This document shows, one piece after another, positions 1 through 19,880 of a stretch of DNA of 64,000 nt. The translations under genes were made by a program, and so were the position numbers. The notes below the pieces were generated by a model. It made no database searches, was not told where the DNA came from, and saw nothing but the letters and a program-made list of their open reading frames with translations. The stretch is from an uncultured Eubacteriales bacterium (GTDB taxonomy: Bacteria; Bacillota; Clostridia; Oscillospirales; JAKOTC01): NCBI GenBank assembly GCA_964587625.1, contig CAZPLU010000005.1, forward strand, positions 10,091 to 74,090. The letters are read 5' to 3'. Within the stretch, counting starts at the first letter, position 1; each line of letters starts with the position of its first letter.

Positions 1-153
1 TTCGGAATCAAGGTCTCCCACTCGCACAGACGCTCCAACAGAACTTGGAAGCCCAATGTGCGCCGCGTCAAAGCCATCGTCGGCGGCACTCCGAAAAGGA
101 TTCACGTCTGTGCGCGCTGCCTGCGTTCCAACAAGGTAACACGCGCTATATAG
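1..153 (+). CDS. rpmB: 50S ribosomal protein L28, 3' part (5' end cut by window edge)
   Basis: Frame-1 translation FGIKVSHSHRRSNRTWKPNVRRVKAIVGGTPKRIHVCARCLRSNKVTRAI* matches the conserved L28 core (SHSxxRxxRxWxPN ... RVCxxCL). Stop TAG at 151-153. Confidence 0.85.
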   Translation, partial: FGIKVSHSHRRSNRTWKPNVRRVKAIVGGTPKRIHVCARCLRSNKVTRAI

Positions 154-196
154 CGCGGCGTTGTATAGCGCGGGGTTGTATAAGCGCGGGGTTGCC
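142..196. repeat. Perfect 16-nt palindrome CGCGCTATATAGCGCG (142-157) spanning the rpmB stop, followed by about 2.5 tandem copies of G(C/G)(G)TTGTATA(A)GCGCGG
   Basis: Read directly: cgcgctatatagcgcg / gcgttgtatagcgcgg / ggttgtataagcgcgg / ggttgcc. Confidence 0.6.
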
Positions 197-217
197 TGAG
201 ACATCTGCTTTTTAAAA

Positions 218-250
218 GCGGGACGGATTTATCCGTCCCTTCTTTCGTTT
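218..250 (+). terminator. Intrinsic terminator after rpmB
   Basis: GGGACGG-ATTTAT-CCGTCCC stem-loop (220-239) followed by the T-rich run TTCTTTCGTTT. Confidence 0.7.
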
Positions 251-336
251 AACGGTTGCATTTTTACTTCATTTATTGTAAAATGAAACCTGTATCCTGC
301 AGAGATTTTGGAATTTGAGTGAAAAGAGGATTGTAT

Positions 337-2037: not shown

Positions 2038-2049
2038 ATGATTTAAAGA

Positions 2050-2080
2050 AACACCTCCGCGGCCGCGGAGGTGTTTTTCG
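2050..2080 (+). terminator. Intrinsic terminator after the acyl-CoA ligase gene
   Basis: Perfect palindromic stem CACCTCCGCGG/CCGCGGAGGTG followed by TTTTT. Confidence 0.85.
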
Positions 2081-2170
2081 TTCAGGGCCGGCGTCAAAGT
2101 CACCCCGGAGCGGCATGACGACCTTTTACCCGGGGACATACCTTTTACTTTTCAAACCTTGTCCGTTTGG

Positions 2171-3964: not shown

Positions 3965-4061
3965 AAATAAAATTCCCCCTTAAATTCGGCGTTTGCCGCA
4001 TAAGGAGAAATGTGTAATACAACAATAATCACTGTTTGGGAAAAATGATTATCCCCGGTAT

Positions 4062-4160
4062 GCAGCAGCGGGATGCGAAATCTGCACCGCAAGAAATCTT
4101 TTCGTCCGCCCGACAACTCCCCGTTCGAGCGGCACTTAACGCGCAAATCCCTACTCTGCC
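4062..4160 (-). promoter_or_regulatory. THF (tetrahydrofolate) riboswitch aptamer in the folC-folT leader
   Basis: The minus strand reads GGCAGAGUAGGGAUUUGCGCGUUAAGUGCCGCUCGAACGGGGAGUUGUCGGGCGGACGAAAAGAUUUCUUGCGGUGCAGAUUUCGCAUCCCGCUGCU. This contains the conserved THF-riboswitch blocks AGAGUAG, GCGUUAAGUG, GGGA, ACGAA, GCGGUG and GCAUCC(C)GCU in the canonical order. Confidence 0.8.
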
Positions 4161-4195
4161 ATTCAATTGTCGCGCGGTTTGCACCGCACGAATAA

Positions 4196-4224
4196 ATCAT
4201 AGCACACGCCCGATCGCTTTTCAA
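4196..4224 (-). promoter_or_regulatory. Sigma-70-type promoter driving the THF riboswitch and folC-folT
   Basis: Minus strand TTGAAA - 17 nt - TATGAT, about 30 nt upstream of the aptamer. Confidence 0.5.
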
Positions 4225-4298
4225 GTGTCCGGCATGCAATTGTGCCTATAAATTAAATACAAAAATCTGTGGGGAAGCGGATGTTTTTCGTTTATTAT

Positions 4299-5138
4299 TT
4301 ATGATTGGAATAATTTTAGGAACTCCTCGAGCGTGAGGTTGTTTTCCATGATATAACGCGCATTTTCCGGACCGACGAACCGGTAGTGCCAGGGCTCGTA
4401 ATCGATTGAAGTGATTTCTTCTTTGCCCTCGGGAAATCGCAGGATAAACCCATATTTCGCGCAGTTTGCAATCAGCCATTTGAATTCGTCGGTCTGGTCG
4501 AATTTCGAGGTCAGCGAGGCGTTGTTCTCATACCACCCCATGCTGACGATGTCCACCGCAAGACCCGTGCCGTGCTCACTTGTCCCCGGAGGCGCCACGA
4601 TTTTAGCGGCCTCGATCTCGGCCTCCTCGCGCGTGTTGCCGTCATCTATAAACTCGTTGATTTTCGCAGTAAACAGCTCTTCCTGCCGCTGCATGCTGCG
4701 GTAGGAAGATATCACATTCAATTTGATCCCGTCGGCCTTGGCGTCGTTGATCATCGCCTGAAGATAAGACAGCGCCCGTGCGTCGATTTTCCGCGTGGAG
4801 CTGAAATTCGCAAGCTCAACCTGGAAATTTTCGGGGAGTGTATGATCTTTATTGACCAACACCAAAGCCCAGTCAAAATTGGGGTTGCGCGTAAACGCGG
4901 AAACGGAGACCGCCGGCTCGATCGACGATTCCGGTTCGGCTGTGCTCTCGATTCTGTTCGGCATATTTTCCAATATCAAATCGGATTCCTCGGAAACGAC
5001 CGGTTGGCTCGGAACCACGATCGTATTCAACCCCACGGCGGCCGACGACGACAAAGCGACTGTTGATGTCGGGACTTTGATCGCGCATCCCGCAGACAGG
5101 AGCAGAGCGGATATTAAGATGAGAAGGAATTTTTTCAT
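4299..5138 (-). CDS. D-alanyl-D-alanine carboxypeptidase, VanY / peptidase M15B family lipoprotein
   Basis: Motifs SYRSMQRQ, SEHGTGLAVDI and EPWHYRFVG. Lipoprotein signal MKKFLLILISALLLSAGC. Start set at that Met (5138) rather than the upstream ORF Met. Confidence 0.85.
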   Translation of the reverse strand: MKKFLLILISALLLSAGCAIKVPTSTVALSSSAAVGLNTIVVPSQPVVSEESDLILENMPNRIESTAEPESSIEPAVSVSAFTRNPNFDWALVLVNKDHTLPENFQVELANFSSTRKIDARALSYLQAMINDAKADGIKLNVISSYRSMQRQEELFTAKINEFIDDGNTREEAEIEAAKIVAPPGTSEHGTGLAVDIVSMGWYENNASLTSKFDQTDEFKWLIANCAKYGFILRFPEGKEEITSIDYEPWHYRFVGPENARYIMENNLTLEEFLKLFQS

Positions 5139-5322
5139 GTTCAATTTGTGCCTTTCGATAATCACCTGACGGTAATCGCCGTCGATTATTATACCACTTC
5201 CGCTCTTTTTGTCAACCGCCGGAGCAGCGGGAAAGATTCCGGAATAAAAAACGGACAAAAAATCGCACGATAAGAAATTGAAAAAGGTTATGCCGCGGAC
5301 GTAAATATCGACCGGGAATCGT

Positions 5323-6492
5323 TCAAATCCTATCCGTTTTGATTTTTCTGCCTAAAATCGTTTTGACTTTGACGCCGTCCGCGTTTGGATAGGCGAAATC
5401 GGAATACACGATATAGGCCTCGTTTTCGCCGGTCGGGACGATTTCGCTGTAAGAGCAGGTCTTTGTTTGCATATCCCCCGGAGCGATGAGTTCGATCCGG
5501 TCGTCCCAGTCGAGCCCCGCTCCATCGGCGGTCGCCCGCAAAAACAATCCCGGCCTGCCGTAACTTGCCAAGGTCACACCGTTTTTGAGCGCGCACAGGC
5601 ACGGCCAAACCCCGTTGTTATCGAACGCTTTCGGTCGGCTCCAATTCTCGCCCCCATCGAAACTTTTTGCATAATAGGTCGGCCCGATGCCGTTACCGTC
5701 GGTGGTGCGCAGCAGGCAAAATACCGAACCGTCGGGCAAAAAACAGATATCCGGTTCGCTGAACCCGTCCCGGGCGCGATAATGATCATCCGCGTTCGGA
5801 TCGGGTTGATAGGGGATTCTGCTGAGATAGAAAAAGGTCTCGCCGCCGTCGTCCGAGACGCAAAACAGCGCGCCGTTTGCGGGCTTGGAGTTGCCGATGA
5901 AAAAATAGGGATATCCGACGGCCCAGATACGTCCGTTCGGCGCTTTCCGAACGCGCCAAAACATCGGTCTCGGCAGCACGCCTTCGCCGGTGTAAGCCGC
6001 CGCGTCGGGTACATGGATATTTTTCCAAACCGTTGTGGGTGTCCTACCTTCTCCGGTGATTTCAAAGGGAAACCGCCAAAACTCTTCGGGTAGTTTTTCC
6101 GCTCTGTAGACATTGCGCCTCAACCCGTAAGAAATTAAGAAGCCGTCGGGTTTTTCGGGGAGCGTCATGTCCGAGAGCGGCAGAGCCGCCGCAATTTTAT
6201 GGCGCAGATACCGATCGCCCGAAATGGGCACGCCGCCGCCCGGGTTGCCGCATTCTCGCCAAGTGACGCCGCCGTCCGCGCTGACCGCGTGGCCTTTGGG
6301 CTTGCCGTAAGCCAACGCGGAGTCCTTGCCGATATGATATTCGCAGTAGAGTTTGCCGCCGAGCCGCTCGACCAGCGGGAACTGGCAGATGCCCCAATGA
6401 TCCCGGTCGGACGGAAGCGGCGGCGACTGCGCGATGATCACGGGATCACCGAGTTCGATTTTTACACGGGCTGCCGATTTTTGACTTCTCAT
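5323..6492 (-). CDS. BNR/Asp-box repeat protein, sialidase-superfamily beta-propeller, no signal peptide
   Basis: Three Asp-box motifs: SADGGVTW, SDDGGETF and SFDGGENW. Start at MRSQKS, preceded by GGAAGGA. Confidence 0.6.
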   Translation of the reverse strand: MRSQKSAARVKIELGDPVIIAQSPPLPSDRDHWGICQFPLVERLGGKLYCEYHIGKDSALAYGKPKGHAVSADGGVTWRECGNPGGGVPISGDRYLRHKIAAALPLSDMTLPEKPDGFLISYGLRRNVYRAEKLPEEFWRFPFEITGEGRTPTTVWKNIHVPDAAAYTGEGVLPRPMFWRVRKAPNGRIWAVGYPYFFIGNSKPANGALFCVSDDGGETFFYLSRIPYQPDPNADDHYRARDGFSEPDICFLPDGSVFCLLRTTDGNGIGPTYYAKSFDGGENWSRPKAFDNNGVWPCLCALKNGVTLASYGRPGLFLRATADGAGLDWDDRIELIAPGDMQTKTCSYSEIVPTGENEAYIVYSDFAYPNADGVKVKTILGRKIKTDRI

Positions 6493-6671
6493 CGTAAAAA
6501 TCCTTCCCGAAATTTTCAACATCGTTTATTTTATCATAGGATCACCGGTTTTTCAACGGCTCTTTGCGCGCTTATGCCCCTGCCCTATGCAAAACGGCGT
6601 TTTTATGGTATACTGGTCTTTGACAAAATGTAAGTGATTTTGTCGAATACATCACGGAGTTATTGCAATCA

Positions 6672-7322
6672 ATGAGGACCTTTATATTTGATCTCGACGG
6701 CACCTTGGTCAATTCTCTGCCCGATATTCAAACGGCGGCAAACAAGGCCTTTCACGCCGTGAATCTCCCGCCCCGCTCCCTTGAAGAAGTCCGGCTTCAT
6801 GTCGGACACGGACTGGACGATTTTATTAAAAGCATCAACCGGCCGCACATCGTCACCGACCGAGAACTCTCGGTCATAAAAACCGTCTACGATGAATATT
6901 ATAAAAACCACCTGGTTGATTTGACGACCGTTTATGAAGGTGTTATCGACCTGCTCGAAAAGCTGCGTAAAATGGGTTGTCTGCTGATCATCGCCTCCAA
7001 TAAAACCGATCTTTATGTTAAAATTATCGCAGACAAGCTCTTTGCCGGGCTGTTTGACGACGCAATCGGACAGATGGCGCATTTCCCGCCCAAACCCCGC
7101 CCCGATCTCGGACAATATATCATGGACAAATACGGACTTTCGGCGGCCGACTGCGTGATGGTGGGGGATTCCAAATTCGACACTGCGTTTGCCAAGAACT
7201 GCGGGTTTTATTCCGTCGGAGTGCGCTGGGGATTTTCGGAACCCGGGGAATTGGAAACAGCGGGCACCGATCTGATTGTCGAAAGAGCCGATGCGATTCT
7301 CGACCTCGCCCGAATTTCCTGA
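6672..7322 (+). CDS. HAD-superfamily phosphatase (phosphoglycolate phosphatase-like)
   Basis: Motif I FDLDGTLVNS, motif II IASNK, motif IV VGDSKFD. Confidence 0.8.
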   Translation: MRTFIFDLDGTLVNSLPDIQTAANKAFHAVNLPPRSLEEVRLHVGHGLDDFIKSINRPHIVTDRELSVIKTVYDEYYKNHLVDLTTVYEGVIDLLEKLRKMGCLLIIASNKTDLYVKIIADKLFAGLFDDAIGQMAHFPPKPRPDLGQYIMDKYGLSAADCVMVGDSKFDTAFAKNCGFYSVGVRWGFSEPGELETAGTDLIVERADAILDLARIS

Positions 7323-7391
7323 TTTTTGCGATTGTCCAAACAGCGGTATTTAGGTATAATGAAACACGTAGACGCTTTTCGGAGATTTAAC

Positions 7392-8864
7392 ATGAAAAAA
7401 ATTGTTTCCATTTTGATTATCGCATTATTGACCGGTTGCGCGCCGTTTTCTCCCGGTGGGGGCTCTTCGATCCCGCCCGTTTCGTCTTCCCCGGCCATCA
7501 AACCGGCATCGGCTGCCTCGGCCGAGCATTCGTTTGCCCAATCAAGCGAAGCATTGTCGGGTGAGCCGCAATCGGCCGAGGGCTCCGCGGTCAAATCCTC
7601 AAAAACAACCGCGTCTTCCGGCGTTTCCGAACGGAGCGAATCCGCGAAACCGAGCGAGACCGAGTCGAGCAAACCCTTGGTCTCCCCCCGACCGGAGTCG
7701 TCCGCATCAAGCGGTTCCGAGACGTCAAGCGCACAATCGTCTCCGCCCCATTCCGAATCGTCAGATGAGATGCGCGGCATTTGGATCTCGTTTTATGAGC
7801 TCACCGACATCATCGATTACGGCGAATATAAAACCCGCATCGACACGATGTTTGACACGGCGAAAGCGACCGGATTCAACGCGGTCTTTTTCCATGTGCA
7901 TGCCTTTGCCGACGCCATGTATCCCTCCGAGATCTTCCCCTTCACCCACCGCATCGGGTATAAAACCCCGGGCGGCGACCCGATTCAGGGCGTAGACCCC
8001 GGTTATGACCCGCTCGCCTATGCGGTGAGCGCGGCGCACAAGCGCGGTCTCCAACTGCACGCGTGGTGGAATCCCTATCGCATCTGGACGCTGTCGGACG
8101 ATATCAGCGCTTTGTCCGAAAACAATCCCGCGTATATTTTTCGGAACAGCGATGATCCGGCTCTTAAAAATTATGTGCTCTCAACCGGAAAGGGACTCTA
8201 TTATAATCCCGCCGAGCAGGGGGTTCGGGATCTGATTTCGGCCGGTATCGCTGAGATGCTCAGCAACTATGCGGTCGACGGCGTCCATTTCGACGATTAT
8301 TTTTACCCCACGACCGATGCGACATTTGATGCGGTTTCCTATGCGATTTATAAAAACGGCGGGGGTCTGTTGTCAATGGCCGACTGGCGCAGGGAAAACG
8401 TCGATAAGCTGTTGTTGCAGGTTCATGCTTTATGCGCTTCGAAGGGCGTCCCGTTCGGCGTCAGTCCCGCGGGAAACATCAGCCGCGTCGTCGATACGAT
8501 GTATGCCAACGTCGCGCTCTGGGGCAGTTCATTCGGGTATGTCGACTACCTCTGTCCCCAGATTTATTGGGGCTTCAAGCACGATACCATGCCGTTTTCA
8601 GGCGCGCTTAACGACTGGCTCGGTTTGGTCACCCACCCCTCGGTGAAACTCTATATCGGGCTGCCCGCCTATAAGCTCGGGGAGACCGATTCCGGAGCCG
8701 GTTCCGGAAAAAACGAATTCAAGAATGACAAAGAGATTATCAAACGAATGGTGCTGACCGCGCGCGCAGTTGATTGTGACGGATTTATCGTCTACAGTTA
8801 TACCGCAATGGCCGGCAGCGCCAACGCAAAAGAGGCAAACGTGCTGAAAGAATTATTGGTGTAA
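7392..8864 (+). CDS. Lipoprotein with a Ser-rich linker and a glycosyl-hydrolase-like 10 (GHL10/YngK-type) TIM-barrel domain
   Basis: Lipobox MKKIVSILIIALLTGC, about 120 aa of S/P/E-rich low complexity, then RGIWISFYEL...FNAVFFHVHAFADAMYPS, typical of the GHL10 family. Confidence 0.6.
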   Translation: MKKIVSILIIALLTGCAPFSPGGGSSIPPVSSSPAIKPASAASAEHSFAQSSEALSGEPQSAEGSAVKSSKTTASSGVSERSESAKPSETESSKPLVSPRPESSASSGSETSSAQSSPPHSESSDEMRGIWISFYELTDIIDYGEYKTRIDTMFDTAKATGFNAVFFHVHAFADAMYPSEIFPFTHRIGYKTPGGDPIQGVDPGYDPLAYAVSAAHKRGLQLHAWWNPYRIWTLSDDISALSENNPAYIFRNSDDPALKNYVLSTGKGLYYNPAEQGVRDLISAGIAEMLSNYAVDGVHFDDYFYPTTDATFDAVSYAIYKNGGGLLSMADWRRENVDKLLLQVHALCASKGVPFGVSPAGNISRVVDTMYANVALWGSSFGYVDYLCPQIYWGFKHDTMPFSGALNDWLGLVTHPSVKLYIGLPAYKLGETDSGAGSGKNEFKNDKEIIKRMVLTARAVDCDGFIVYSYTAMAGSANAKEANVLKELLV

Positions 8865-8908
8865 GCGCGGCAGCAAACGCACGCAGGTGCGTTGGGAGGT
8901 AAAAGGAC

Positions 8909-11900
8909 ATGCAAGATTACAGCGCCAGAAGACGCAGCAGAAACGGCGGCAAACCGTTGCCGGAACGAAAGGGTCAACCCCGATCCGTTGAAAAAGAAGA
9001 AAAAAAGTCAGCGGACCTTTTTTCCGTCTCCGACGGGTCGGTCAAGACCGCAGAAAAAAGCGCCCCCGAAAAACCCGTACCGGTTCTTCAGCCGTCCCCA
9101 AAAGAGTCAAAACCAAAAGGACCAAAGGAACCCAAAAGACCCGGCGGCCGACTCGGATTAAAGATCACGGCGCTGGCTTTGGCGGCGGTGATACTCGCGG
9201 GCAGTGTTTTGACCTATGTGAAATGGTATGACATTCTCGACCTCACGGACAGCTGGAAACAGGAAGAGGTGACGGTCTTGCCGCTCTCTCAAACCGATCC
9301 GGAATATCTGTACTCGCGTTATACATACCAACCGCTGCATTACGCCTCGGCCTCCGGCGCTTTTATCGACAAGACACTCGCGCTGGAAGCCCTGCCCGGT
9401 GTGGATTTTTATACCGCGCCCGACATGTCCTTTGAAGACGTCAAAAAAGAAATTGACGCGTTGATCGCGTTTGCCTCCTCGATGAGAGCGAACGAATTGA
9501 TTGTGCCGCTGCAGTGTTCGGAAGGCGCTTTCGTCGGCATCGGCGGTTTCGACGCGCTGTATAACGGGCAGCTGGCGGCCTATTTCGTCTCTGCGGTCAA
9601 TGAGGCCGGAATCAGGATTTCATTTTCATATTCACCGTTTTCATGGGTAAAAGGCGGCAGTCCGGTTCTGCTTGATCCGACCAAACCCGCCGACCGCTCC
9701 CTGATCCGTGCCGCTGCGGCGCAGATCGCCGCGTTAGGCGCCGGGAGCTATGTCCTGACCGGCTGCGCATATGCCGAGGGTCAGGGCAGTTATGCCGATT
9801 ATGCCGCCTCGAATATCGCAAGCGGTTTCGAGGTCTATAAACGCAACGCCTTGTCCGACTGCCTGTTTGAAATCGCCGAAGCCCTGCGCGCCGGCGACAG
9901 CGCCTCCGTCGGCGTCCGCGTCAATCCGGCGTGGCAGCTCTCCTCCAACTGCGCCGAGGGCATTGACATCACCTGCGACTACGAGAGTTATACAGACGGT
10001 TATGCGGACACCAAGGCCTGGCTCTCGAACGGCATATTCGATTATTTCCAGGTGGAGAACTACGGCTCGCTGACCGATAAAGAACAGCCGTTTGACGAGG
10101 TGTTTGAATGGTGGAACCAAGCGGCCGGAGCCGGAATCCCCCTCATGGTTGTCCACGCGGGTCAAAAGATCGCTTCAAGTGAGACCGGATGGTCTTTATA
10201 TGACCAGATTCCCAAACAGATCCTCGAAGTGCAAAAACTCGACGCCTATGGCGGCAGCGTCATCAGCGGCATCTCAAAACTGGTGAAATACTCGGAAATC
10301 CCCGCCGTTATCTCCAGTTCTTTCAGCGGCGAAATCGACGGCGACGACATCCTGAGACGACTCGCCATCACCTCTCCGAAAAAAAGAGACACCACCACTT
10401 ACGAGTCCAAGTTTACGCTGTCGGGCAGCTCCGATCCCAACTTCAGCGTCATATTGAACGGCGAAGCGATCGAACGCACTTCAAAGGGTTATTTTTCGTT
10501 CAACTTTGACCTCGAAGTCGGCATCAATCAATTTGTCCTTGAGCATAAGGGTACAAAAGTCACCTATACCGTCGAGCGCAAGATCCTCGTCGTCAAGACG
10601 GTCGATCCGACCAAATCGATCACCATTTATGCCGGAACGCCGATTGTGTTCAGCGCCATTGCGCTCAAAGGCAGCACCGTCTACGCCGAGGTCGACGGTA
10701 AAAAAGTGCCGATGCACGAAGATGCGATTTTGCTGGAGGAATCCAGTGAGGCCTTCGGCGATTACATCAACTACACGGGTATTTACACCGTGCCCGAAAA
10801 TTCCAAGTCCCGCACGATCAGCGGCATCAAGATCACGGGTACCTGGGATGGGTATACCACCACCAAAAACTGCGCCGACGTCAAGGTCAAAGAGATCGAC
10901 AAAGATACCGTCAGAGTTGCGAAAGTCGTCTCCGAAACCGGCGCTGAGGTGTTCCGCTACGGCACCGTCGACGATAAATCCGTGCCGACCGCCTATCCGC
11001 TGCCCCAAGGCACGCGCGATTTCATCATCGGCGAAGTCACCCTGCCCTTCAGCGAAGACGGCGCGAGCCATGTCTATGTCTATTACCTGCTGCAGTCGGG
11101 CAAACGCGTTTACAAGAGCAAGGATGGCGTCGCCTCCGCCGATGTGATGATTGAGGCCGGTTCCACCGTGCCGTTCGCAACGATCAGCAACCCCGGGTTC
11201 GAGGTCACCGGCGATTATACCAAGCTGTATTTGGATATGAGCAGCAAGGTGCCGTTCTCGGTCGAACTGCTCCCCCAGAACTATGTCGACGCCACCAGCA
11301 CCACGCCCAACTTCACCATCGGCGACTTTACCGCCGACAAAGTCAAAATCACCTTCAATTACGTCACCGACGCCTCGGCTCTGACCACTCTTTCCGCCAG
11401 TCCCCTGTTCAGCGCGGTCAGCGGTTGGGAAAAAGACGGCAGCAACTACAGCGTCACGTTGACGATGGCTAAGTCGTTTTACGGCATGTACGGCGAATAC
11501 GAGGGCGATACGCTCGTGTTCTCGTTCAACAACCCGCCCGTGATCTCGGCCGCATCCAACAATTATGGGTATTCGTTGCAGGGTCTTACCATCCTCCTCG
11601 ATCCCGGCCACGGCGGCTCCTCTCCGGGCGCGGTCGGCGCAAACCCGAATTACCCCGAAAAACGCATCAACCTTGAATTGTCCGGCAAAATCGCGGACAT
11701 TCTCGAGGGCTTGGGCGCCAGAGTCATTATGATGCGTACAAGCGACGTCTATATCTCCATCGAGAATCGCACCATCCAGTGCGGAAAACTGCGGCCCGAC
11801 ATCTACATCAGCGTTCACCACAACTGGGGCGCTTCTGTCAACGCAATCGGCACGGACGCCTTCTACTTCATGCCGTTCTCCAAGGATCTTGCCAATTCGA

Positions 11901-12313
11901 TTTACAAACGCATGATCAGTTACTACGACAGCAATATGTATCCGGGCGCAAATTCAAACGCCTATAAGCGCGGCTGCAACTACTACCCGTTCTACGTCAC
12001 CAGGCACTGGTATTGCCCCTCCACGCTGGTCGAATACGGATTTATGAGCAACTCGGCGGAATTGCAGAAGATGATCGATCCCAATACGCAGGACGGATTC
12101 GCCCGCGCCACGGTCAGGGGTATCATCGATTATTTCGTCAACTACGGCATTGTGGCCCCGGGCGGAACCCAAATCCCCGATGAACCCTCGCAACCCTCGG
12201 CGCCGAGCGAACCCGAGATCCCGTCCGAATCGAACCCGGAGGTCTCCTCCGATGTGAGCTCGGAAGCAGAGTCATCCGAAGTGATTTCGGAAAGTCCCGC
12301 GGCTTTTCAATAG
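8909..12313 (+). CDS. Large membrane-anchored cell-wall protein with a C-terminal N-acetylmuramoyl-L-alanine amidase (Amidase_3) domain
   Basis: Lys/Pro-rich basic N-terminus, one TM segment (LKITALALAAVILAGSVLTY), about 800 aa of unassigned extracellular sequence, then the Amidase_3 motifs ILLDPGHGG, ISVHHN and LVEYGFMSN, and a Ser/Glu/Pro tail. GGGAGG lies 9 nt upstream of the ATG. Confidence 0.75.
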   Translation: MQDYSARRRSRNGGKPLPERKGQPRSVEKEEKKSADLFSVSDGSVKTAEKSAPEKPVPVLQPSPKESKPKGPKEPKRPGGRLGLKITALALAAVILAGSVLTYVKWYDILDLTDSWKQEEVTVLPLSQTDPEYLYSRYTYQPLHYASASGAFIDKTLALEALPGVDFYTAPDMSFEDVKKEIDALIAFASSMRANELIVPLQCSEGAFVGIGGFDALYNGQLAAYFVSAVNEAGIRISFSYSPFSWVKGGSPVLLDPTKPADRSLIRAAAAQIAALGAGSYVLTGCAYAEGQGSYADYAASNIASGFEVYKRNALSDCLFEIAEALRAGDSASVGVRVNPAWQLSSNCAEGIDITCDYESYTDGYADTKAWLSNGIFDYFQVENYGSLTDKEQPFDEVFEWWNQAAGAGIPLMVVHAGQKIASSETGWSLYDQIPKQILEVQKLDAYGGSVISGISKLVKYSEIPAVISSSFSGEIDGDDILRRLAITSPKKRDTTTYESKFTLSGSSDPNFSVILNGEAIERTSKGYFSFNFDLEVGINQFVLEHKGTKVTYTVERKILVVKTVDPTKSITIYAGTPIVFSAIALKGSTVYAEVDGKKVPMHEDAILLEESSEAFGDYINYTGIYTVPENSKSRTISGIKITGTWDGYTTTKNCADVKVKEIDKDTVRVAKVVSETGAEVFRYGTVDDKSVPTAYPLPQGTRDFIIGEVTLPFSEDGASHVYVYYLLQSGKRVYKSKDGVASADVMIEAGSTVPFATISNPGFEVTGDYTKLYLDMSSKVPFSVELLPQNYVDATSTTPNFTIGDFTADKVKITFNYVTDASALTTLSASPLFSAVSGWEKDGSNYSVTLTMAKSFYGMYGEYEGDTLVFSFNNPPVISAASNNYGYSLQGLTILLDPGHGGSSPGAVGANPNYPEKRINLELSGKIADILEGLGARVIMMRTSDVYISIENRTIQCGKLRPDIYISVHHNWGASVNAIGTDAFYFMPFSKDLANSIYKRMISYYDSNMYPGANSNAYKRGCNYYPFYVTRHWYCPSTLVEYGFMSNSAELQKMIDPNTQDGFARATVRGIIDYFVNYGIVAPGGTQIPDEPSQPSAPSEPEIPSESNPEVSSDVSSEAESSEVISESPAAFQ

Positions 12314-12371
12314 GGGATTGCAACATAAGCCCCATATGAAAAACACCAATTGTTAAAAACGACTGCTCTAC

Positions 12372-12411
12372 AAAAAACTCGCCCATCTTTTCAGATGAAC
12401 GAGTTTTTTTC
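12372..12411 (+). terminator. Probable intrinsic terminator after the amidase gene
   Basis: ACTCGCCCATC-TTTTCA-GATGAACGAGT imperfect stem followed by TTTTTTT. Confidence 0.5.
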
Positions 12412-12519
12412 TTGGGATTGTTTTGTTACAGTCGCTGGTATTGGATGTGTCCTTTTCTTTTCAGATCACATATGATAGATTGGTGAGGCCCACCAAATTT
12501 TTGGGGAGAGACACTATAT

Positions 12520-12729
12520 ATGGCTTGTTGTAATGATAACCGTCGCCCGGTTTGCTGCGGGAACACACCGATTTTTAATAATCGGTTCTGTATCTGCTGC
12601 GGCGGAACACCCATCTATGATGATTTCAGATGCGGGAGAGAGTCCGGCATGTGCGACAACAGACGCGATGTCTGTCGAAATGCAATTTCTCCGATCTTTA
12701 ACGGCTGGCGTTGTCCGCTGCCACGGTAA
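12520..12729 (+). CDS. Small cysteine-rich repeat protein (69 aa, 11 Cys), function unknown
   Basis: ATG preceded by GGGGAGAG about 10 nt upstream, and flanked by terminators on both sides. Three repeats: TPIFNNRFC, TPIYDDFRC and SPIFNGWRC. CC doublets at residues 3-4, 12-13 and 26-27. No signal peptide or TM segment. Confidence 0.5.
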   Translation: MACCNDNRRPVCCGNTPIFNNRFCICCGGTPIYDDFRCGRESGMCDNRRDVCRNAISPIFNGWRCPLPR

Positions 12730-12768
12730 TACTGATTTTAATTTCACAAATAAATACCAGTATAATCG

Positions 12769-12802
12769 AAAACCCCCGGGGCAAAGCCCCGGGGGTTTAT
12801 TT
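12769..12802. terminator. Bidirectional intrinsic terminator shared by the Cys-rich ORF (+) and the MutS-like operon (-)
   Basis: Perfect 10-bp GC stem CCCCCGGGGC-AAA-GCCCCGGGGG, flanked by AAAA upstream and TTTATTT downstream. Confidence 0.85.
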
Positions 12803-12815
12803 GTTCACTTTTTGT

Positions 12816-14486
12816 TCACTTATTGTTCACGTCGACGCGGTCAAGCTTCAATCCGAAGCGCTCGACAACGTCATAGGCGTGCGAAGTGCCTTCCGGCGCT
12901 TGTTCGATCAGGTGATAGGTCGGGACATTGTATTGGTTGCTCTCGTGGCGTTTGATTTGAACAACCAAGGATTTGAGCGGAGCCCCGGAGAGCAGCGAGT
13001 TGAGCCGGTAGATATCCTTGGCGAGTTTGTGCAAGTGGGTGACCCAGATGCCGCGTGCGCCGAGCAATTTGATGGTGCTCGTGATCTCGCGGGAAATGAT
13101 CAGGGTCTCGGCGGTGCCGGTTCCGGTCAGCGGCTCGTTGAACAACACCATTGAATTGCTGGAAATGTGGTTCATCATGTTGCCGACACGGGCGATTTCC
13201 TGGTCAAATTTGCCCTTCTTTGTGGTGGAGACCTCTTCTTTGAGCGCAAAGACCGTGAAGATGTTGTCGACAAGACCCATTTTGGCCTTTTTTGCGCCGA
13301 CCGGCATACCGAGTTGGAACATCAGCTGACCGACGCCGACCGAACGCAGGAAAGTCGTCTTTCCGCCCTGGTTGGCACCCGTGAGCAGTGCGAACTGCCC
13401 TTCGGGAACGAAGTCGATATCGTTGGGAATGACCGGACGGCTGCCTTTGAGCACCAACAGCAACAGCGGCAAATAGAGTTCCGAGGCGAAATACCTCTTG
13501 TCGTCACAGATCTCGGGGAAGCAATACGCGCCGCCGAGCGCCTCGATCTTGCTGAGATAGTTGAAGACGCCGATATAGAATGTCAGGGATTGCTTGAGGT
13601 TTAAAATCCATCTGGTGACCTGCTTGAGATAGTCGCGTACACGCAGACCGGCCTCGCCGACGCAAGAGCCGAGCGCCCCGCGCACAAAGTTGGACATCCT
13701 CACACCCTCACTGGCGTGGGTCGCGCTCTGAGAGCTGGCGGTCTGCTTTGTCATATCGCCCATGTTAAAGCCGGAGCGGTTGGCAAGGTCATCTTTGAGT
13801 CGATAGGAATCGGTCAGACCGCGCTTGAACGGCTCTTTGTTTTTCGGTTCGCGTTCACGCGGTTCGATGTAGGAATAATCGTTGACAGAGAGCAGTTTGA
13901 CATGGGAAATTTCGAAGCTCTCATTGAAGTTGAAACCGAGCGTAATGCTCTTGGGGTCGTCGAGATTCGGCAGACGTTCTTTCCAGGTCTCGATGATCTT
14001 TTTATAACCCTCGCTCTCGTAGGCCTCTTTGACATATCCGAAAAACTGCTTCAGGCCGTATCCGAGATCGTCCTCATCCTGATACTTGCCGAGGGTGGTG
14101 TAGAGTTTTTCTAAAATGCTGAAATAGGTCTCCGCAAACGCGTATTTGTTCATCGCAAAGAACGCCTCGAGATCGCTGGTGGAATCGTCCATGTTCGGGA
14201 TGGAGAAGAAGTCCTGCCAGTCGTTGATCGATTTCAGCAGGTCTTTGAACAGATCCAGCAGATCGGGGTGGCGCTGTAAACTCTTGATGATGTTTTGGCG
14301 CTCACAAACCACTTCTTTATCAAGCGCGAACAGGTTGCAAAGCTGCAGCGCGTTGATCTTGCTGTCCATGCCGTCGAACATGGCTTCAACCAAAAAGTCA
14401 AGGTCGAGGTTTTCGATAAACAGTTCGTCAAAGCTCGGTACGCGGTTAACAACAGGATCTTCCGTCATCCAAAGTAAATCAAACAT
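12816..14486 (-). CDS. MutS-related ABC ATPase, paralogue B (core/clamp plus ATPase domains only)
   Basis: Walker A LLTGANQGGKTTFLRSVG, Walker-B-like MVLFNEPLTGTG, H-loop WVTHLHKL, and MutS-like C-terminal YHLIEQAPEGTSHAYDVVERFGL. No domain I mismatch-binding motif and no Smr or nuclease domain. RBS AAAGGGGG. Confidence 0.8.
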   Translation of the reverse strand: MFDLLWMTEDPVVNRVPSFDELFIENLDLDFLVEAMFDGMDSKINALQLCNLFALDKEVVCERQNIIKSLQRHPDLLDLFKDLLKSINDWQDFFSIPNMDDSTSDLEAFFAMNKYAFAETYFSILEKLYTTLGKYQDEDDLGYGLKQFFGYVKEAYESEGYKKIIETWKERLPNLDDPKSITLGFNFNESFEISHVKLLSVNDYSYIEPREREPKNKEPFKRGLTDSYRLKDDLANRSGFNMGDMTKQTASSQSATHASEGVRMSNFVRGALGSCVGEAGLRVRDYLKQVTRWILNLKQSLTFYIGVFNYLSKIEALGGAYCFPEICDDKRYFASELYLPLLLLVLKGSRPVIPNDIDFVPEGQFALLTGANQGGKTTFLRSVGVGQLMFQLGMPVGAKKAKMGLVDNIFTVFALKEEVSTTKKGKFDQEIARVGNMMNHISSNSMVLFNEPLTGTGTAETLIISREITSTIKLLGARGIWVTHLHKLAKDIYRLNSLLSGAPLKSLVVQIKRHESNQYNVPTYHLIEQAPEGTSHAYDVVERFGLKLDRVDVNNK

Positions 14487-14501
14487 CTTGTTGTGCCCCC
14501 T

Positions 14502-16163
14502 TTAATTCATATCGGAGTCGCCGTCTTCATGCAGTTGCATGATGGTCGGCTTATCGATTTCGAGTTGAATCTCTCTCTCGTCGAATCGGTGCATGATCTG
14601 ACGCAGAGTGATGCCGTGGGATGCCGCGACTTCAAGCGCATAGCTCTTCTTTTGCGGGGCACCCGTTTTGATCTTGTAGGTACGGATGGCGATATCGCTT
14701 TCGGGATTGGGTTTGGTCAGGGTGATCAAGCTGCCGGTCTTTCCGGGATGCGCTTTTTCAATGGCCGGCAGAAAATCGTACAACTCGTAGAAGTGCGTCG
14801 CCACGATGCCCGAAACTTCGCTGTCAAGCAGTGTTTTGATCAAGTCGGCGCAGATCTGGGAGCCCTCCATCGGGCTTGTGGACGTCAGCGGCTCGTTCAT
14901 GATGACGATCGAGTTCGTCGTGACATTCGGGAGCATCTCGGTGATCTGACGGACTTCTTCACCCATCCGCGAGTCCTCATAGTTGTCGGTCTCGCCGCCC
15001 GAGAAGATCGTGAATATCGATTGCACCGGTGAGATCTTGACCTCTTCGGCGGGCAGGTAGAAGCCCAGCTGGAACAGCCAGATCAACTGGCCGGTGGCGG
15101 TCATATAGGTGCTCTTGCCGGAGCTGTTTGCGCCGGTCAGCAAGTAGAACTTGCCTTCGACCGGGAAAGTGATTTCGTTTTTGATCGTTTCGTTGTCGGG
15201 GTCAAGCGCCAGCAGTATCGGGTACATCTCAGTGGCTTGGAGCAGGAACTTTTCGGAGTCGACAACCGTCGGCTGACACATCGAGAAACCCTGATCGCGC
15301 AGGCGGCGGATCAGATTGAGCGCGCCGGCATAGAAAGAAAAGGCCTCGTCGACGTTCTGGAATTCTTGCAGACCCTGCGGTTTGTATTTGTTGCAGATGG
15401 CTCTGATTTCCTTGACCGATCCTTTATAGTGTTCGTGAATCATATTCAACGCTTCGTTCTGGAAAAGACCGAGGTTGGAGATGTTGGGCATCGCTTTCAG
15501 GTTTGAAACGCCCTTGATCTCTTCTTCTTTCCAATAGACGAAAATCGAGCTCTTGTCATACGGCTCGTGGGAGAACTCATCGACCGTCATCGATTGGAGA
15601 ATCTGTCCGTTTTTCAGGTTCGCGCCGAGGGCGAAACCGCGGATATCGAGCCAGGAGGTGTCAACCTTTGAAAAATCATGGAGCATCTTGTCGATTTCGT
15701 CGTTGTCATAATAGTCGTTGACCATCTTCTTGAGCACTTCGATGGCCTCGGATTTGGTCTTGACCTCGGGATCCGCGAACGCCTCGCGCAGTGCGTTCAT
15801 CAGATTGGCGTACAACGACAGGCGGCGATATTTCAGGCCGATCTGGCAGATGACGTTGTCACGGTATTCCATCTTGCGGGTGAATTCCTTCAAATAGGCC
15901 AGCGAGGACGGAATCAGGAAGAAGGCCTTTTCCAACTTCGGATTGGCGATGAGGTCGTCGATCATGCCGTTGCGGAATGCGATGATCTCGGCGTCGTTCG
16001 TCGTCAGGTCGTACAGCTGTTCGATCGACAGCGTGAATCCGGTGCCGAGGAACATATTTTCGACCAATGCCTCCAATCTGAGGTTTTGAATGTTCTTATC
16101 CCGTCTGACAACGTCAAATGCGATTTGTTCTTTATCCGCGGGATAGAGCAAGGGGTTTTTCAT
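14502..16163 (-). CDS. MutS-related ABC ATPase, paralogue A (core/clamp plus ATPase domains only)
   Basis: Walker A LLTGANSSGKSTYMTATG, Walker-B-like IVIMNEPLTSTS, H-loop VATHFYEL, and C-terminal YKIKTGAPQKKSYALEVAASHGIT as in MutS domain V. The start ATG overlaps the stop of the upstream M23 gene (ATGA). Confidence 0.8.
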   Translation of the reverse strand: MKNPLLYPADKEQIAFDVVRRDKNIQNLRLEALVENMFLGTGFTLSIEQLYDLTTNDAEIIAFRNGMIDDLIANPKLEKAFFLIPSSLAYLKEFTRKMEYRDNVICQIGLKYRRLSLYANLMNALREAFADPEVKTKSEAIEVLKKMVNDYYDNDEIDKMLHDFSKVDTSWLDIRGFALGANLKNGQILQSMTVDEFSHEPYDKSSIFVYWKEEEIKGVSNLKAMPNISNLGLFQNEALNMIHEHYKGSVKEIRAICNKYKPQGLQEFQNVDEAFSFYAGALNLIRRLRDQGFSMCQPTVVDSEKFLLQATEMYPILLALDPDNETIKNEITFPVEGKFYLLTGANSSGKSTYMTATGQLIWLFQLGFYLPAEEVKISPVQSIFTIFSGGETDNYEDSRMGEEVRQITEMLPNVTTNSIVIMNEPLTSTSPMEGSQICADLIKTLLDSEVSGIVATHFYELYDFLPAIEKAHPGKTGSLITLTKPNPESDIAIRTYKIKTGAPQKKSYALEVAASHGITLRQIMHRFDEREIQLEIDKPTIMQLHEDGDSDMN

Positions 16164-17197
16164 TGGTTGTTCATCCTTTCCAATTGTGTGTATATGTCAT
16201 CGGTACCGATCAGTACCGCAGGATCGATGTTGACGCCATTTACTTTGATGTTGAAATGCAGATGCGGACCGGTGGCGTATCCCGTGGAGCCGATTTCTCC
16301 GATTTTCTCACCTGTCGAAACCGTCTGCCACGTCTCGACGGATAACTCTGATAAATGATTATAGTAGCTGAATATGTTGAAACCGTGATCAATAATGACG
16401 GTATAGCCGTAAAATTTTAATTTTCCCGCATATGTAACGCGTCCCGCTCCGGCGGCAATGACCGGATCCCCCTCATCGGCCGCGATATCATATCCCGAGT
16501 GCGCCGAGCTGTATGTCCCGTTGGTGTAGCGGCGCATCCCGTATTGGGTGGAAATCCGACCCTCGGCGGGCATCACGAATCCGCCTGCAAATAACAATTT
16601 TTGCGTTGAAACGCCGGTCGCCTGTGCGATAATTTCCTTGTCATAATCAAGATTTTCGCTGCCGCCCGCCTCTGCCATCGACGAGCCGGACACCACCGTC
16701 AAGTCCTGTCTTTCAAAAGTCCTTTTGACGAACTTGATCGTCTTTTGCGCGATAACGGCGTATTCGCCGTTTTGAGATCGGAGAATCTGCACCTTGCCGG
16801 TCTTGCCGGTCGTGCTCGACAGCGGGACAAATCCGATGAAATGTCCGTCTTCTTTGAGCAGTTCGAAGACCTTGGAGGTCACTTCGCTGAACCGCGCCCA
16901 AAGCGCGTTATCCCCGCTGCCCTCCACCCGGACGATTAAAAATTCTCCGGGGCGGATCTCGTCGGAGGAGACCGTCAGCGCAACAGACGGCGTGCTTGGA
17001 GAGGGGGCGTTTTGCGAAGAGACGTTGACAGATGGCGCGCTCTGCGTTGGCGAAGATTTTGCTTGAGAACTCGACTCCGCGATCGAGGTCTGTGACGCCG
17101 GTAGAATATCGGTGACCGTTGAAGAGATTGTCCCCACTTCGGCACATCCGCAAAACAACAGCGCGCAACCCAAAACGGTAAGAGCCAGGCGTTTCAT
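16160..17197 (-). CDS. M23 family (LytM-type) peptidoglycan endopeptidase lipoprotein
   Basis: Lipobox [18 protein letters not shown]. Intact catalytic motifs HSGYD and [12 protein letters not shown]. Start chosen at the lipobox Met, which overlaps the mscL stop (ATGA). Confidence 0.85.
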
Positions 17198-17619
17198 TTT
17201 TTCAACTGTGTGCTCTGTTCTTTGAGCAGATCGCGAATCTCGGTGAGCAAAACTTCCTCTTTCGAAGGTTCGGGCGGAGGCGCCGGGGCTTTGGGTGCGG
17301 GCTTTTTGCGCATTGCGTTGACGGCTTTTACCACAAAGAACAGGCACAGCGCAATGATGAGAAATTCTGCGATTGTCTGAATGAACAGCCCGTAGTTCAA
17401 CGTTACCGCAGGCGTTTCACCCACCGCTTTGGCCAGCTCGAAGCTCATTTTCGAAAAATCCATGCCGCCCAAAAGGACTCCGAGCGGCGGCATAATGACA
17501 TCCGCCACAAACGAGGAGACGATTTTCCCGAAAGCGGCGCCGATGACGACGCCGATGGCCATGTCGAAGACATTTCCCTTGACCGCAAATTCTTTGAATT
17601 CGCCGAAAAATTTTTTCAT
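17194..17619 (-). CDS. mscL: Large-conductance mechanosensitive channel
   Basis: [47 protein letters not shown] is the canonical MscL N-terminus and TM1. Length 141 aa. Confidence 0.9.
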
Positions 17620-17760
17620 ACACGGCCATCCTTCCGCAGATCGTATTTCGAAATATGTATTTTCAAACTTTCAGCCCTTCCCGGCGAGGTCGAAACCGCA
17701 TACGAATGCTTGGCATACACATATATGCGCACACTGTCAATCGCATACAAGCATAAAGTT

Positions 17761-17790
17761 ATTATATAATGTCTCACAGCGGCTTGTCAA
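17761..17790 (-). promoter_or_regulatory. Sigma-70-type promoter upstream of the mscL operon
   Basis: Minus strand TTGACA (17790-17785), then 16-18 nt, then TATATAAT (17768-17761). Confidence 0.45.
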
Positions 17791-17850
17791 CCACAAATAG
17801 GGCGAAATCGACAAAAATGTTTTCCATACGAGGTGAATTTTATCCGTTTT

Positions 17851-19407
17851 TTAAAAGACGTCAATTGCAATCTCAGCCCATTTGACCGTAAAGGGCTCGC
17901 GCATCGCGGCGATCTCGACGATATGCGCCGTCGGCATTTCCGGTCTGTTTGCGATCTCAAAAGCGTGGTATTCCAATCCGGGATAACAAGGTGCGGGAAG
18001 TGTCGTTCTCCCCGTATAGTTTAACTTTTCGGCGTCGAGAAAGACGTCGAAATCTGATTCGGAGAGTCCTCTGCCCTCATCAACCCCCAACACAAAGTAC
18101 AGTTTTGTCCCCGGCGCCACTTTGCCGACCGGGATGCGCAGCGTTTTATATTCGGATTTGCCGACAAAGGCCGGATTGCCGCCGCCGCGTTTTGCGCACT
18201 CGAGCGGAAGCGGGTTTTTATGCGGTATGCCGGGCGCTTTGACGTCGCGGTAGGTCACGATATGACGGCGCGGTTTGCCCGCCAGCGCATCGGTGGAACC
18301 GAGTTCTTTGAGCATCTGCCGATATTGTTCCCCGTGGAACAGTGCCTGTTCGCCCGAGGGGTCATCCATGTAGTTGAACAAATACACGAAATCCGCGCCC
18401 AGCGCGAGGTTGGCGGCGGCCGTGCCGCGCGCGGTCTCGACGCTGTTATATAAAACCGCTTTTTTCGGCTCGGTGAACATCGAATCGATCAAGACCTCCT
18501 GCCCCGCCGCCAGTTTGACCGGCTTTCCGGCGAGCAGCTTTTTCCAAAAATCGATCGGCATATCGTTGTCCGAGGTCGCCCAGCGCGGCGTGACCGTGAT
18601 TAAATCAACCAAACCCCGATCGACCCATTCAAAAAAATCGAAGCCGAGCCGCAGGGCAAGCAGCGGGTCCGCGGGCAGCCGCACGGCGATTTGAATCGGG
18701 TGGCCCCATTTTTGCTCCGCTTTGTCGGCTTCTTTTCGGACGCGCTCCATCAGTTCGGTGATGAGCTTCGCGCCCTGCTCCTCGCGGCCGATGCGCAGCG
18801 AATAGATTTCGCGCATCCAGTCGAGTTCAAGCCCGTGTATGTCGAATTTTTGCAAGACCTCGGCCGCCAATGCGAATAGGTGTTCGCGCACCTCGGGATA
18901 ACAAAAATCAAGGGCGTTGTCGTAGTAGTCGCAGGCCCCGAGCGTGTGGTGCAGGCCGCGGCGCTTTTCCTTGTTCTCGCGGAAAAAAGACGAGTGCAAA
19001 AAATGGTTTTCGTCGTCGTTGTTATGCACGTCGTTGGTGCGGAGCGAAATCCAGGGGTTTATGCCGATCTCGCGCAGGCGGGCGATCCAGATTTGATACA
19101 TGTCGAGGCCCTGATCGAAATAGATGCTTTTCAGCACCTCGACATAGCCGCCGTTGGACAGCGGGAGCTCCCCGTCGAGGTTTCCGCCCGCTTTTTTGAC
19201 GCGTTCATAATTGCGCAGCGCGTCGTCGCGGCTCTCGCACGGAAACCACGCGATGCTGCCGTTGACGTTGAGGAAGAAGTCGGTCACGCCCGTGTCTTGA
19301 TACTGGTCGATGAATTCATGCAGCTCTTTCAGGCCGACTTTGATATGATTGCGGTAACGTGTGTAAATAAAGTGATTGCAATCCTCGTTGAATAATATTC
19401 CGCCCAT
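17851..19407 (-). CDS. Hypothetical cytoplasmic protein, 518 aa; possible glycoside-hydrolase-like TIM barrel
   Basis: Long clean ORF with AAGGAG 8 nt upstream. No signal peptide. Segments such as FFLNVN, GLELDWMRE and FVYLFNY loosely resemble GH-like barrels, but I recognise no diagnostic motif. Confidence 0.45.
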   Translation of the reverse strand: MGGILFNEDCNHFIYTRYRNHIKVGLKELHEFIDQYQDTGVTDFFLNVNGSIAWFPCESRDDALRNYERVKKAGGNLDGELPLSNGGYVEVLKSIYFDQGLDMYQIWIARLREIGINPWISLRTNDVHNNDDENHFLHSSFFRENKEKRRGLHHTLGACDYYDNALDFCYPEVREHLFALAAEVLQKFDIHGLELDWMREIYSLRIGREEQGAKLITELMERVRKEADKAEQKWGHPIQIAVRLPADPLLALRLGFDFFEWVDRGLVDLITVTPRWATSDNDMPIDFWKKLLAGKPVKLAAGQEVLIDSMFTEPKKAVLYNSVETARGTAAANLALGADFVYLFNYMDDPSGEQALFHGEQYRQMLKELGSTDALAGKPRRHIVTYRDVKAPGIPHKNPLPLECAKRGGGNPAFVGKSEYKTLRIPVGKVAPGTKLYFVLGVDEGRGLSESDFDVFLDAEKLNYTGRTTLPAPCYPGLEYHAFEIANRPEMPTAHIVEIAAMREPFTVKWAEIAIDVF

Positions 19408-19487: not shown

Positions 19488-19766
19488 TTAATCGGCGAGA
19501 TAGGACTTGAGCAGCGCCGTCAACAGCTCGTCCCGGTCGATCTTGCGAATCAGCGACCGGGCGTTTTTATAAGTCGTGATATAGGTGGGATCTTCCGACA
19601 GGATATAGCCGACGATCTGGTTGATCGGGTTATATCCCTTTTCCGCCATCGCGTCAAAAACGGCGGTCAAAATCTGTTTCATCTCGCCGTCCTTGTCGCC
19701 GGGGATTAAGAAGGGCTTGGTCGGCTCGGATTGCGTCAATTGATTGACCGGATTATTTTCGTTCAT
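19488..19766 (-). CDS. ireB: IreB family regulatory phosphoprotein (UPF0297)
   Basis: [49 protein letters not shown] is the hallmark UPF0297/IreB core. Start at MNENN, 8 nt after GGGAGG. Confidence 0.85.
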
Positions 19767-19880
19767 GCATCGCACCTCCCGGAGACATTTGCTGTGATGG
19801 ATATCATTATTATACCTTATGCTCGTCCGAATTGCAATATGATGATTTTATTTTTGGCACAATCCGCCAATTTCAGGCGA

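Follow-up and report, generated by a model that had tools for sequence, protein, structure and literature searches.

To date, the described systems that most resemble the genes studied here are the MutSac-only subfamilies MutS3A/B and MutS4A/B of Lin, Nei and Ma (2007; PMC2190696), and in the case of MutS4 the A gene is a direct neighbor of the B gene, the stop codon of one often overlapping the start codon of the other (PMC2190696). Here, we analyze a stretch of 64,000 nucleotides from an uncultured Eubacteriales bacterium (contig CAZPLU010000005.1, positions 10,091 to 74,090; hereafter the window), which contains two tandem genes of this kind, MutS-like A and MutS-like B, directly downstream of mscL, which encodes a membrane channel, and of a gene for an M23 peptidase. 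We consider it probable, at roughly 0.68, that this arrangement is a lineage-restricted co-transcription of an autonomous gene pair with two ordinary envelope genes, i.e., a juxtaposition and not a conserved functional module.

The A and B proteins share with MutS3 and MutS4 a MutSac ATPase that is accompanied neither by domains I and II nor by an Smr domain, as well as the division into separate A and B clades, and they share with MutS4 the adjacency of the two paralogous genes, which is seen in the window pair and in its relatives. They differ from MutS4 in that a 15-nt spacer takes the place of the overlap. It should be noted that the likeness to MutS3 and MutS4 is one of description. The core of the locus, a MutSac-only tandem pair, was therefore already described in Lin et al. 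(2007), and the statement in an earlier note on this DNA that no system of this composition is known stands for the four-gene combination, but not for the adjacent MutSac-only pair.

The note had placed four minus-strand genes between one promoter-like site and one terminator, and this is borne out by the open reading frames (ORFs), by a promoter-like site that matches the sigma-70 consensus at all 12 positions and by a 13-bp hairpin downstream of the B gene (Table 1). The two ATGA overlaps that join mscL to the M23 gene and the M23 gene to A, and the A-B spacer with its Shine-Dalgarno sequence, were read directly from the sequence, and A and B share their reading frame across the spacer. The window contains two perfect TTGACA/TATAAT matches, where shuffled sequences give an expectation of 0.02. 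Inside the four-gene block we found no convincing internal promoter or terminator, and in the mscL leader no RNA element was detected either at the Rfam gathering thresholds or in a permissive scan of positions 17560-17900. Taken together, the promoter-like site, the hairpin, the coupled junctions and the lack of internal signals fit a single transcript, and the layout is consistent with the four genes being one co-transcribed, translationally coupled unit.

The first two products of this putative unit belong to known families. MscL passes the curated equivalog cutoffs (NCBIfam NF001843, 194.9 bits with a cutoff of 142; TIGR00220, 156.6 bits with a cutoff of 71) and matches Pfam MscL at 4.8e-45. 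The second protein matches Pfam Peptidase_M23 at 5.9e-32 and has intact zinc-binding motifs, HSGYD at residue 233 and HLH at residue 312, which correspond to HxxxD and HxH; toward the N terminus it is similar to proteins of the Pgp3/Csd3 type, although its score of 137 bits stays below the cutoff of 300. The ORF listing offers a longer alternative with a GTG start at 17347, but the signal peptide predicted from the ATG at 17197, the length of the orthologues (345-357 aa) and the gene call in a 92%-identical contig all indicate that the ATG is the start. The predicted signal peptide contains Cys residues. Judged by these features, the protein is probably an active, exported LytM-type peptidoglycan endopeptidase, and it is probably lipid-anchored.

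In the case of A and B, Pfam recognizes only MutS_V (1e-23 and 1.8e-20, respectively) and finds no MutS_I, MutS_II, Smr or nuclease domain in either protein, in agreement, as regards domain I, Smr and nucleases, with what the note had read from the translations. As it also proposed, the two are clear paralogues, aligning over their full length with 24% identity (E = 2e-37). An AlphaFold2 model of A, built on a 55-sequence alignment, reached a predicted local distance difference test score (pLDDT) of 85.7 and a predicted template-modelling score of 0.85, and consists of a helical bundle (residues 21-173), a beta hairpin (176-198) and further helices (231-290), followed by the ATPase and C-terminal helices. 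Foldseek aligned 530-610 columns of this model to MSH2, MutS and the MutS2 core with a TMq of about 0.6; only the III-IV-V portion of MutS and MSH2 was aligned, and this fold occupies the model fully. The match over nearly the whole length shows that the description "lever, clamp and ATPase, nothing else" is correct for A. Both A and B are thus built solely of a helical lever/core, a small beta clamp, an ABC ATPase and a C-terminal helix-turn-helix.

The ATPase motifs appear complete, with one characteristic change. In A, the Walker A lysine is K350, the Walker B residues are N423-E424 and the H-loop histidine is H457; B has GANQGGKTT, LFNEP and VTH at the corresponding places. When both proteins are aligned to Escherichia coli MutS, the Walker A motif, the catalytic Glu, the H-loop His and the C-terminal helix-turn-helix/SYALEVA region are conserved, as the note had stated for Walker A, the H-loop and the SYALEVA region, and all core features of the ABC ATPase of the MutS superfamily are present in A and B. 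However, D693 of the E. coli D693-E694 pair is aligned to Asn in both proteins, in A within VIMNE(P) and in B within VLFNE(P). The same hhhhNE Walker B was found in 39 of 39 family sequences, comprising Clostridial A and B, single-gene and fluoride-type members (see below), versus DE in three MutS1 outgroups. Asn for Asp at this magnesium-coordinating position therefore looks like a family-defining substitution.

Could A and B be the remains of a canonical MutS or MutS2, either split, with the missing domains encoded nearby, or decaying as pseudogenes? Their best curated matches are indeed MutS1 and MutS2, but these concern domain V only and fall far below the cutoffs: the scores are 86 bits with the MutS1 model NF003810 (cutoff 480) and 71-77 bits with TIGR01070 (MutS1; cutoff 641.7), in both cases over the ATPase region only, and 52-70 bits with TIGR01069 (MutS2; cutoff 400). 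Domains I and II, the DE of Walker B and an equivalog score, all features of canonical MutS1, are absent. Each protein is a complete lever-clamp-ATPase unit, no other MutS-related ORF is present in the window, and the orthologues of A and B at 64-92% identity are intact and of equal length, with conserved catalytic motifs. The chance that we are dealing with split genes, an alternative that the note itself had raised, or with degenerate ones is therefore negligible.

Two MutS-type clamps outside mismatch repair help to place the pair. MutS2 (RqcU) is a sensor of ribosome collisions and a suppressor of recombination, showing that a MutS clamp can act on ribosomes and not just on mismatches. Like A and B it lacks domains I and II and has a lever-clamp-ATPase core that forms a dimeric clamp, and the A model matches the core of Thermus thermophilus MutS2 (7vuk/7vuf). 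MutS2 differs in possessing KOW and Smr nuclease domains, neither of which is present in A or B, in being a homodimer where A and B probably form a heterodimer, and in having the Walker B Asp that is replaced by Asn in A and B. MSH4-MSH5 is a heterodimer of MutS paralogues without domain I, which works as an ATP-driven clamp and does not recognize mismatches. It has kept domain II, however, and belongs to the MutS1 lineage; as it has no specific sequence affinity to the pair, the likeness is a functional analogy only.

A third point of comparison is KamC (NF052383, "lysine 5,6-aminomutase reactivase ATPase"). This MutS-related protein measures about 508 aa, has neither domain I nor domain II and is the best-scoring curated model after MutS1, with 78-83 bits against a cutoff of 300 and over the ATPase region only. 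We found no usable paper on KamC, the name of which derives from the NCBIfam label alone, and no kam or lysine-fermentation genes lie near the window pair. The label hints that some MutS-like ATPases act on proteins and not on DNA.

The family to which A and B belong is large. A word-indexed search with A returned 18 relatives of the same architecture and one with B about 80, which come from Oscillospiraceae, Methanocalculus, Proteobacteria and Propionibacteriaceae and some of which carry the label "DNA mismatch repair ATPase MutS". An exhaustive profile search yielded 1,634 representatives of clusters at 50% identity (E<=1e-30); among the best 150 of these, the length is about 420-720 aa with the exception of one fusion, and most match near full length. 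Hence, whereas MutSac-only pairs were known from a handful of genomes in 2007, the family now comprises at least 1,634 such clusters; no curated NCBIfam model exists for it. The fusion, P0231 (1,106 aa), joins two complete modules (residues 8-538 and 553-1100), which supports the view that two modules work together.

Of 235 family members, 131 carry a conserved motif, (F)SLL(W/Y)P, at the extreme N terminus, inside the first 25 residues. This motif takes the form PLLYP at residues 4-8 of A and DLLW at residues 3-6 of B, and it opens each half of P0231. The first 20 residues of the A model are non-helical, with a pLDDT of 83-88. We take the motif to be loosely similar to the QxxLxP clamp-binding peptide of MutL.

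Phylogenetic analysis of the pairs (neighbor-joining, Poisson distances, 200 bootstraps) involved identities of 17-30%, and only strongly supported clades were used. Bootstrap support is 100% both for the Clostridial A clade and for the Clostridial B clade, and the two show identical internal branching, i.e., mirror-image topologies, as expected for subunits that are inherited and evolve together. The single-gene forms constitute a 100%-supported group, the placement of which beside the Clostridial A+B clade has only 45-62% support. A and B thus belong to the Clostridial branch of a large family of MutS-like proteins of about 500-600 aa, which in most lineages sampled occurs as a co-inherited adjacent gene pair. 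Based on the mirror-image trees and the natural fusion, it is probable that A and B form a heterodimer, as had been suggested in the earlier note.

We then come to the extent of the linkage between the pair and the envelope genes. For this, 68 loci were collected from GTDB species genomes with an A-family profile, together with contigs of individual homologues, and all ORFs were scored against the four window proteins. In 38 fetched loci, which belong to Oscillospiraceae, Bianqueaceae, Lachnospiraceae, other metagenome-assembled genomes (MAGs) of Clostridia and also Ferrimicrobium, the A-B pair is present in the same order and on the same strand; contig ends truncate several further loci. A single gene instead of a pair is found in Chloroflexota, Rubrobacter, Thermobaculum and a spirochaete. 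MscL and M23 stand beside the pair only in the loci L001 and L007 (both 92% A identity), L003 and L006 (both 64%) and L074 (reached via M23). These mscL-linked loci also retain IreB and/or a 518-aa gene upstream, so that the linkage is confined to a lineage with shared upstream synteny and counts as one event. Among the other Clostridial loci with at least 2 kb of upstream sequence, MscL or M23 near the pair was seen in none of 28.

The pair is found without the envelope genes even within the same MAGs. CAZTDA01 has, besides L007, the extra pairs L018 and L023, and JAKOTC01 has L008 besides L006. L008 is the nearest paralogous pair (43% identity to A), and L018 is the sister of the mscL-linked pairs in the tree, a position that fits the idea that the pair was duplicated and that one copy came to lie behind mscL-M23. 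As a separate observation, the B gene of L004/L008 is split over three ORFs (250, 200 and 115 aa), which reflects either a decaying copy or assembly errors.

Approached from the side of the envelope genes, the result is the same. In 43 metagenome mscL loci with at least 1.5 kb downstream (from the 80 closest), neither an adjacent M23 gene nor any MutS-like gene was found. M23 orthologues with at least 46% identity coincide with the mscL-linked lineage, and beyond them, at about 35% identity, come relatives that occur by themselves in unrelated gene contexts. All-against-all clustering of the ORFs within 6 kb around the pair in about 55 loci revealed no partner gene conserved across clades; the best flanking family, a GFO/IDH oxidoreductase, occurs in 12 loci on varying sides and strands. 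At a distance of about 1.3 kb downstream of the Clostridial pair in L013 there is a NiCo riboswitch (66 bits), which is probably unrelated to the pair.

The following sequence of events would account for these data. In an ancestor of one narrow Oscillospiraceae lineage, a copy of the pair would have come to lie directly downstream of mscL-M23, and the mscL promoter would since then have driven the pair, with translational coupling to M23. That this copy arose by duplication is suggested by the paralogue tree and by the extra pairs in the same MAGs. MscL and M23 would meanwhile perform their ordinary envelope jobs. As for the pair itself, homology to MutS, MSH4-MSH5 and MutS2 predicts that the A-B heterodimer forms two composite nucleotide sites, and that, upon ATP binding, the levers and clamps would close on a macromolecular ligand, which is probably either a nucleic acid or a nucleoprotein particle. 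The Walker B Asn suggests altered, probably slow hydrolysis, which would give switch-like behavior. As the pair has neither a mismatch-binding domain nor a nuclease, its role would be one of signaling or remodeling, not of cutting.

Several observations weigh against this account. The block, including the stop-start overlap between M23 and A, persists down to 64% A identity even though the genes between the 518-aa gene and mscL have changed (L003), so that some selection for co-expression is possible. The group of M23 orthologues is co-extensive with the linkage, and no case of this M23 without the pair was seen. The operon lies in a region rich in cell-wall genes, which encode VanY, GHL10, an Amidase_3 protein and IreB. 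Finally, the clamp segment of A (residues 174-232) has a net charge of -1 and is not basic, which is weak evidence against DNA as the ligand.

The persistence of the block despite changed flanks and the cell-wall genes around it, together with the tight translational coupling of four genes behind one strong promoter-like site and the retained catalytic residues of M23, could also mean that the operon is a module coupled to the envelope, in which the heterodimer senses a nucleic-acid or stress signal and acts in fixed stoichiometry with MscL and M23 in lysis, in a sporulation or cell-wall checkpoint or in abortive infection. This is essentially what the earlier note had proposed when it described the function of the pair as stoichiometrically tied to a channel and a peptidoglycan hydrolase. 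We consider it quite unlikely, because the linkage represents a single lineage and a single evolutionary event, because both envelope genes are missing from all 28 of the remaining Clostridial loci that offer enough upstream sequence, as well as from the paralogous pairs in the same MAGs, and because the arrangement is absent from the 43 informative mscL loci outside the lineage. The neighborhood comparison that the note had called for thus speaks against the module: in related genomes the pair occurs away from M23 and mscL, and the linkage is confined to one synteny-sharing lineage.

The suggestion that the operon is a conflict or abortive-infection module fares no better. A search of the four proteins against PADLOC-DB v2 gave P-loop-level matches at E>=0.001 for A and B, i.e., P-loop noise, and none for M23 and MscL, and tblastn against phage records found matches at the level of the ATPase domain only, with at most 47% coverage and no full-length relatives. 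No mobile-element or defence-island features were seen in the window. There is no positive evidence for a defence role, which we regard as very improbable.

Full-length relatives of another kind were found on plasmids. With tblastn, large enterobacterial plasmids yielded two relatives per record at 20-22% identity, in the order fluoride riboswitch, cation:proton antiporter, universal stress protein, MutS-like, MutS-like, all on one strand; this unit adjoins a P-type ATPase gene, crcB, gpmA, eno and a second riboswitch. The fluoride riboswitch (RF01734) lies directly 5' of a tandem pair, or of its antiporter-stress protein-pair operon, in eight distant loci, with scores of 35.6-59.4 bits: three in Ferrimicrobium, one in a Methanocalculus archaeon, one in a Propionibacteriaceae genome, L082 and two enterobacterial plasmids of the IncHI/IncF type. 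The Methanocalculus, Propionibacteriaceae and L082 loci were picked solely for their long contigs. Weinberg et al. (2010) recorded "mutS" among the genes of the crcB motif (PMC2864571), and the tandem pairs behind fluoride riboswitches are evidently these "mutS" genes. In the Methanocalculus locus (L080), the pair lies among genes of the defence- and toxin-island type, namely NERD, a McrBC fragment, SLFN/AlbA_2, PIN and HicA.

The fluoride-type pairs resemble the window pair in being tandem genes of the same length and full-length architecture with a Walker B Asn-Glu. It is therefore conceivable that the pair family acts in ionic or toxic-anion stress and not in DNA repair, and that, in the window, the pair belongs to a stress regulon with MscL, both responding to stress on the envelope or from ion flux and the coupling being regulatory and not physical. 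The eight riboswitch loci, the plasmid unit with its antiporter, stress protein and neighboring crcB, eno, gpmA and P-type ATPase genes, the 2010 record of mutS and the Asn common to all branches favor this idea. However, RF01734 was found in none of 41 Clostridial loci scanned, in agreement with a simple pattern screen, and it is absent from the window both at gathering thresholds and in the permissive leader scan; the surroundings of the window pair contain no crcB, eno or antiporter gene. The subunits of the fluoride type fall into deep clades of their own, F1 and F2, to which A and B do not belong and with which they share 17-24% identity. In addition, the first subunit of the fluoride-type pairs (L055, L078, L080, L081, L082) has lost the H-loop His, having Phe instead (VTF/VSF versus VTH), while both window subunits have retained it; this change suggests one degenerate ATP site and hence an asymmetric heterodimer in the fluoride-type pairs. 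A shared stress regulon is therefore unlikely in the case of the window, and the link to fluoride offers a clue to the superfamily but no evidence on this operon.

A bolder idea takes together the fluoride riboswitches, the plasmid operon with its antiporter and stress protein, and the copy wired to MscL and a wall endopeptidase, and sees in the family as a whole, instead of a DNA-repair device, a switch that is driven by ATP and serves under ion or envelope stress. We hold this to be a long shot. Were it correct, the recurring company of membrane-flux genes would be functional, a corollary that we consider just as doubtful, and the Walker B Asn would be an adaptation, e.g., to magnesium-fluoride chemistry or to slow switching, which is an equally speculative notion.

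Returning to the lineage-specific juxtaposition as the best explanation, the window adds one to the instances of a MutS-like gene pair that is very widespread, here as part of an unusual operon, and reveals neither a new defence or checkpoint system nor a new principle. It follows that an adjacency seen in one lineage should not lead to annotation of the four-gene operon as a functional module. What is noteworthy is the family, with its clusters spread across bacteria and archaea, its Walker B Asn, its apparent inheritance as a unit that probably encodes a heterodimer and the control of some of its branches by fluoride riboswitches. A cultured Clostridial carrier, Bianquea renquensis NSJ-32 (L033), may offer an experimental entry point.

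Table 1. Positions of the operon features, the surrounding features of the window and elements in related loci
Feature	Sequence	Position	Strand	Remarks
Sigma-70-type promoter-like site	window	17790-17761	minus	TTGACA-18 nt-TATAAT, 12/12 consensus match
mscL 5' leader	window	17760-17620	minus	about 140 nt; no recognized RNA element
mscL	window	17619-17194	minus	141 aa; from ORF listing
mscL/M23 overlap	window	17194-17197		ATGA, stop/start
M23 peptidase gene	window	17197-16160	minus	345 aa; start overlaps mscL stop
M23/A overlap	window	16160-16163		ATGA, stop/start
MutS-like A	window	16163-14502	minus	553 aa; start overlaps M23 stop
A-B spacer	window	14501-14487	minus	15 nt, Shine-Dalgarno AAAGGGGG; read directly
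MutS-like B	window	14486-12816	minus	556 aa; full-length paralogue of A
Terminator-like hairpin	window	12770-12798	none (palindromic)	13 bp, 10 of them G-C; G+C-rich; 18 nt past B stop
THF (tetrahydrofolate) riboswitch	window	4064-4160	minus	91.2 bits; upstream of ORF 3964-2171 (minus, 597 aa)
VanY-type D,D-carboxypeptidase	window	4299-5258		
Second perfect promoter match	window	5188-5215	minus	TTGACA-N16-TATAAT
GHL10 protein	window	7326-8864		
Protein ending in Amidase_3 domain	window	8909-12313		1,134 aa; convergent with B
518-aa protein gene	window	17851-19407	minus	no Pfam match
IreB	window	19488-19775		
518-aa protein gene	L001	4799-6355		
518-aa protein gene	L003	650-2242		
518-aa protein gene	L006	1120-2679		
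518-aa protein gene	L074	2986-4539		
Closest paralogous pair (B gene broken)	L004/L008	7142-8805		three ORFs
NiCo riboswitch	L013	6878-6958		
RF01734	L055	7030-7086		
RF01734	L056	871-928		
RF01734	L057	2158-2215		
RF01734	L078	3296-3356		
RF01734	L079	4732-4792		
RF01734	L080	5118-5179		locus 1-15464, Methanocalculus sp.
RF01734	L081	5347-5404		
RF01734	L082	5185-5246		

The gene for the 518-aa protein, which has no Pfam match, is located upstream of mscL throughout the lineage with the four-gene block and, among the fetched loci, was found nowhere else. When the whole window was searched at the Rfam gathering thresholds, the sole hit was the THF riboswitch, away from the operon. The second perfect promoter match lies inside the 5' end of the VanY ORF, which is listed with a TTG start at 5258, and the true start of VanY may therefore be further downstream.

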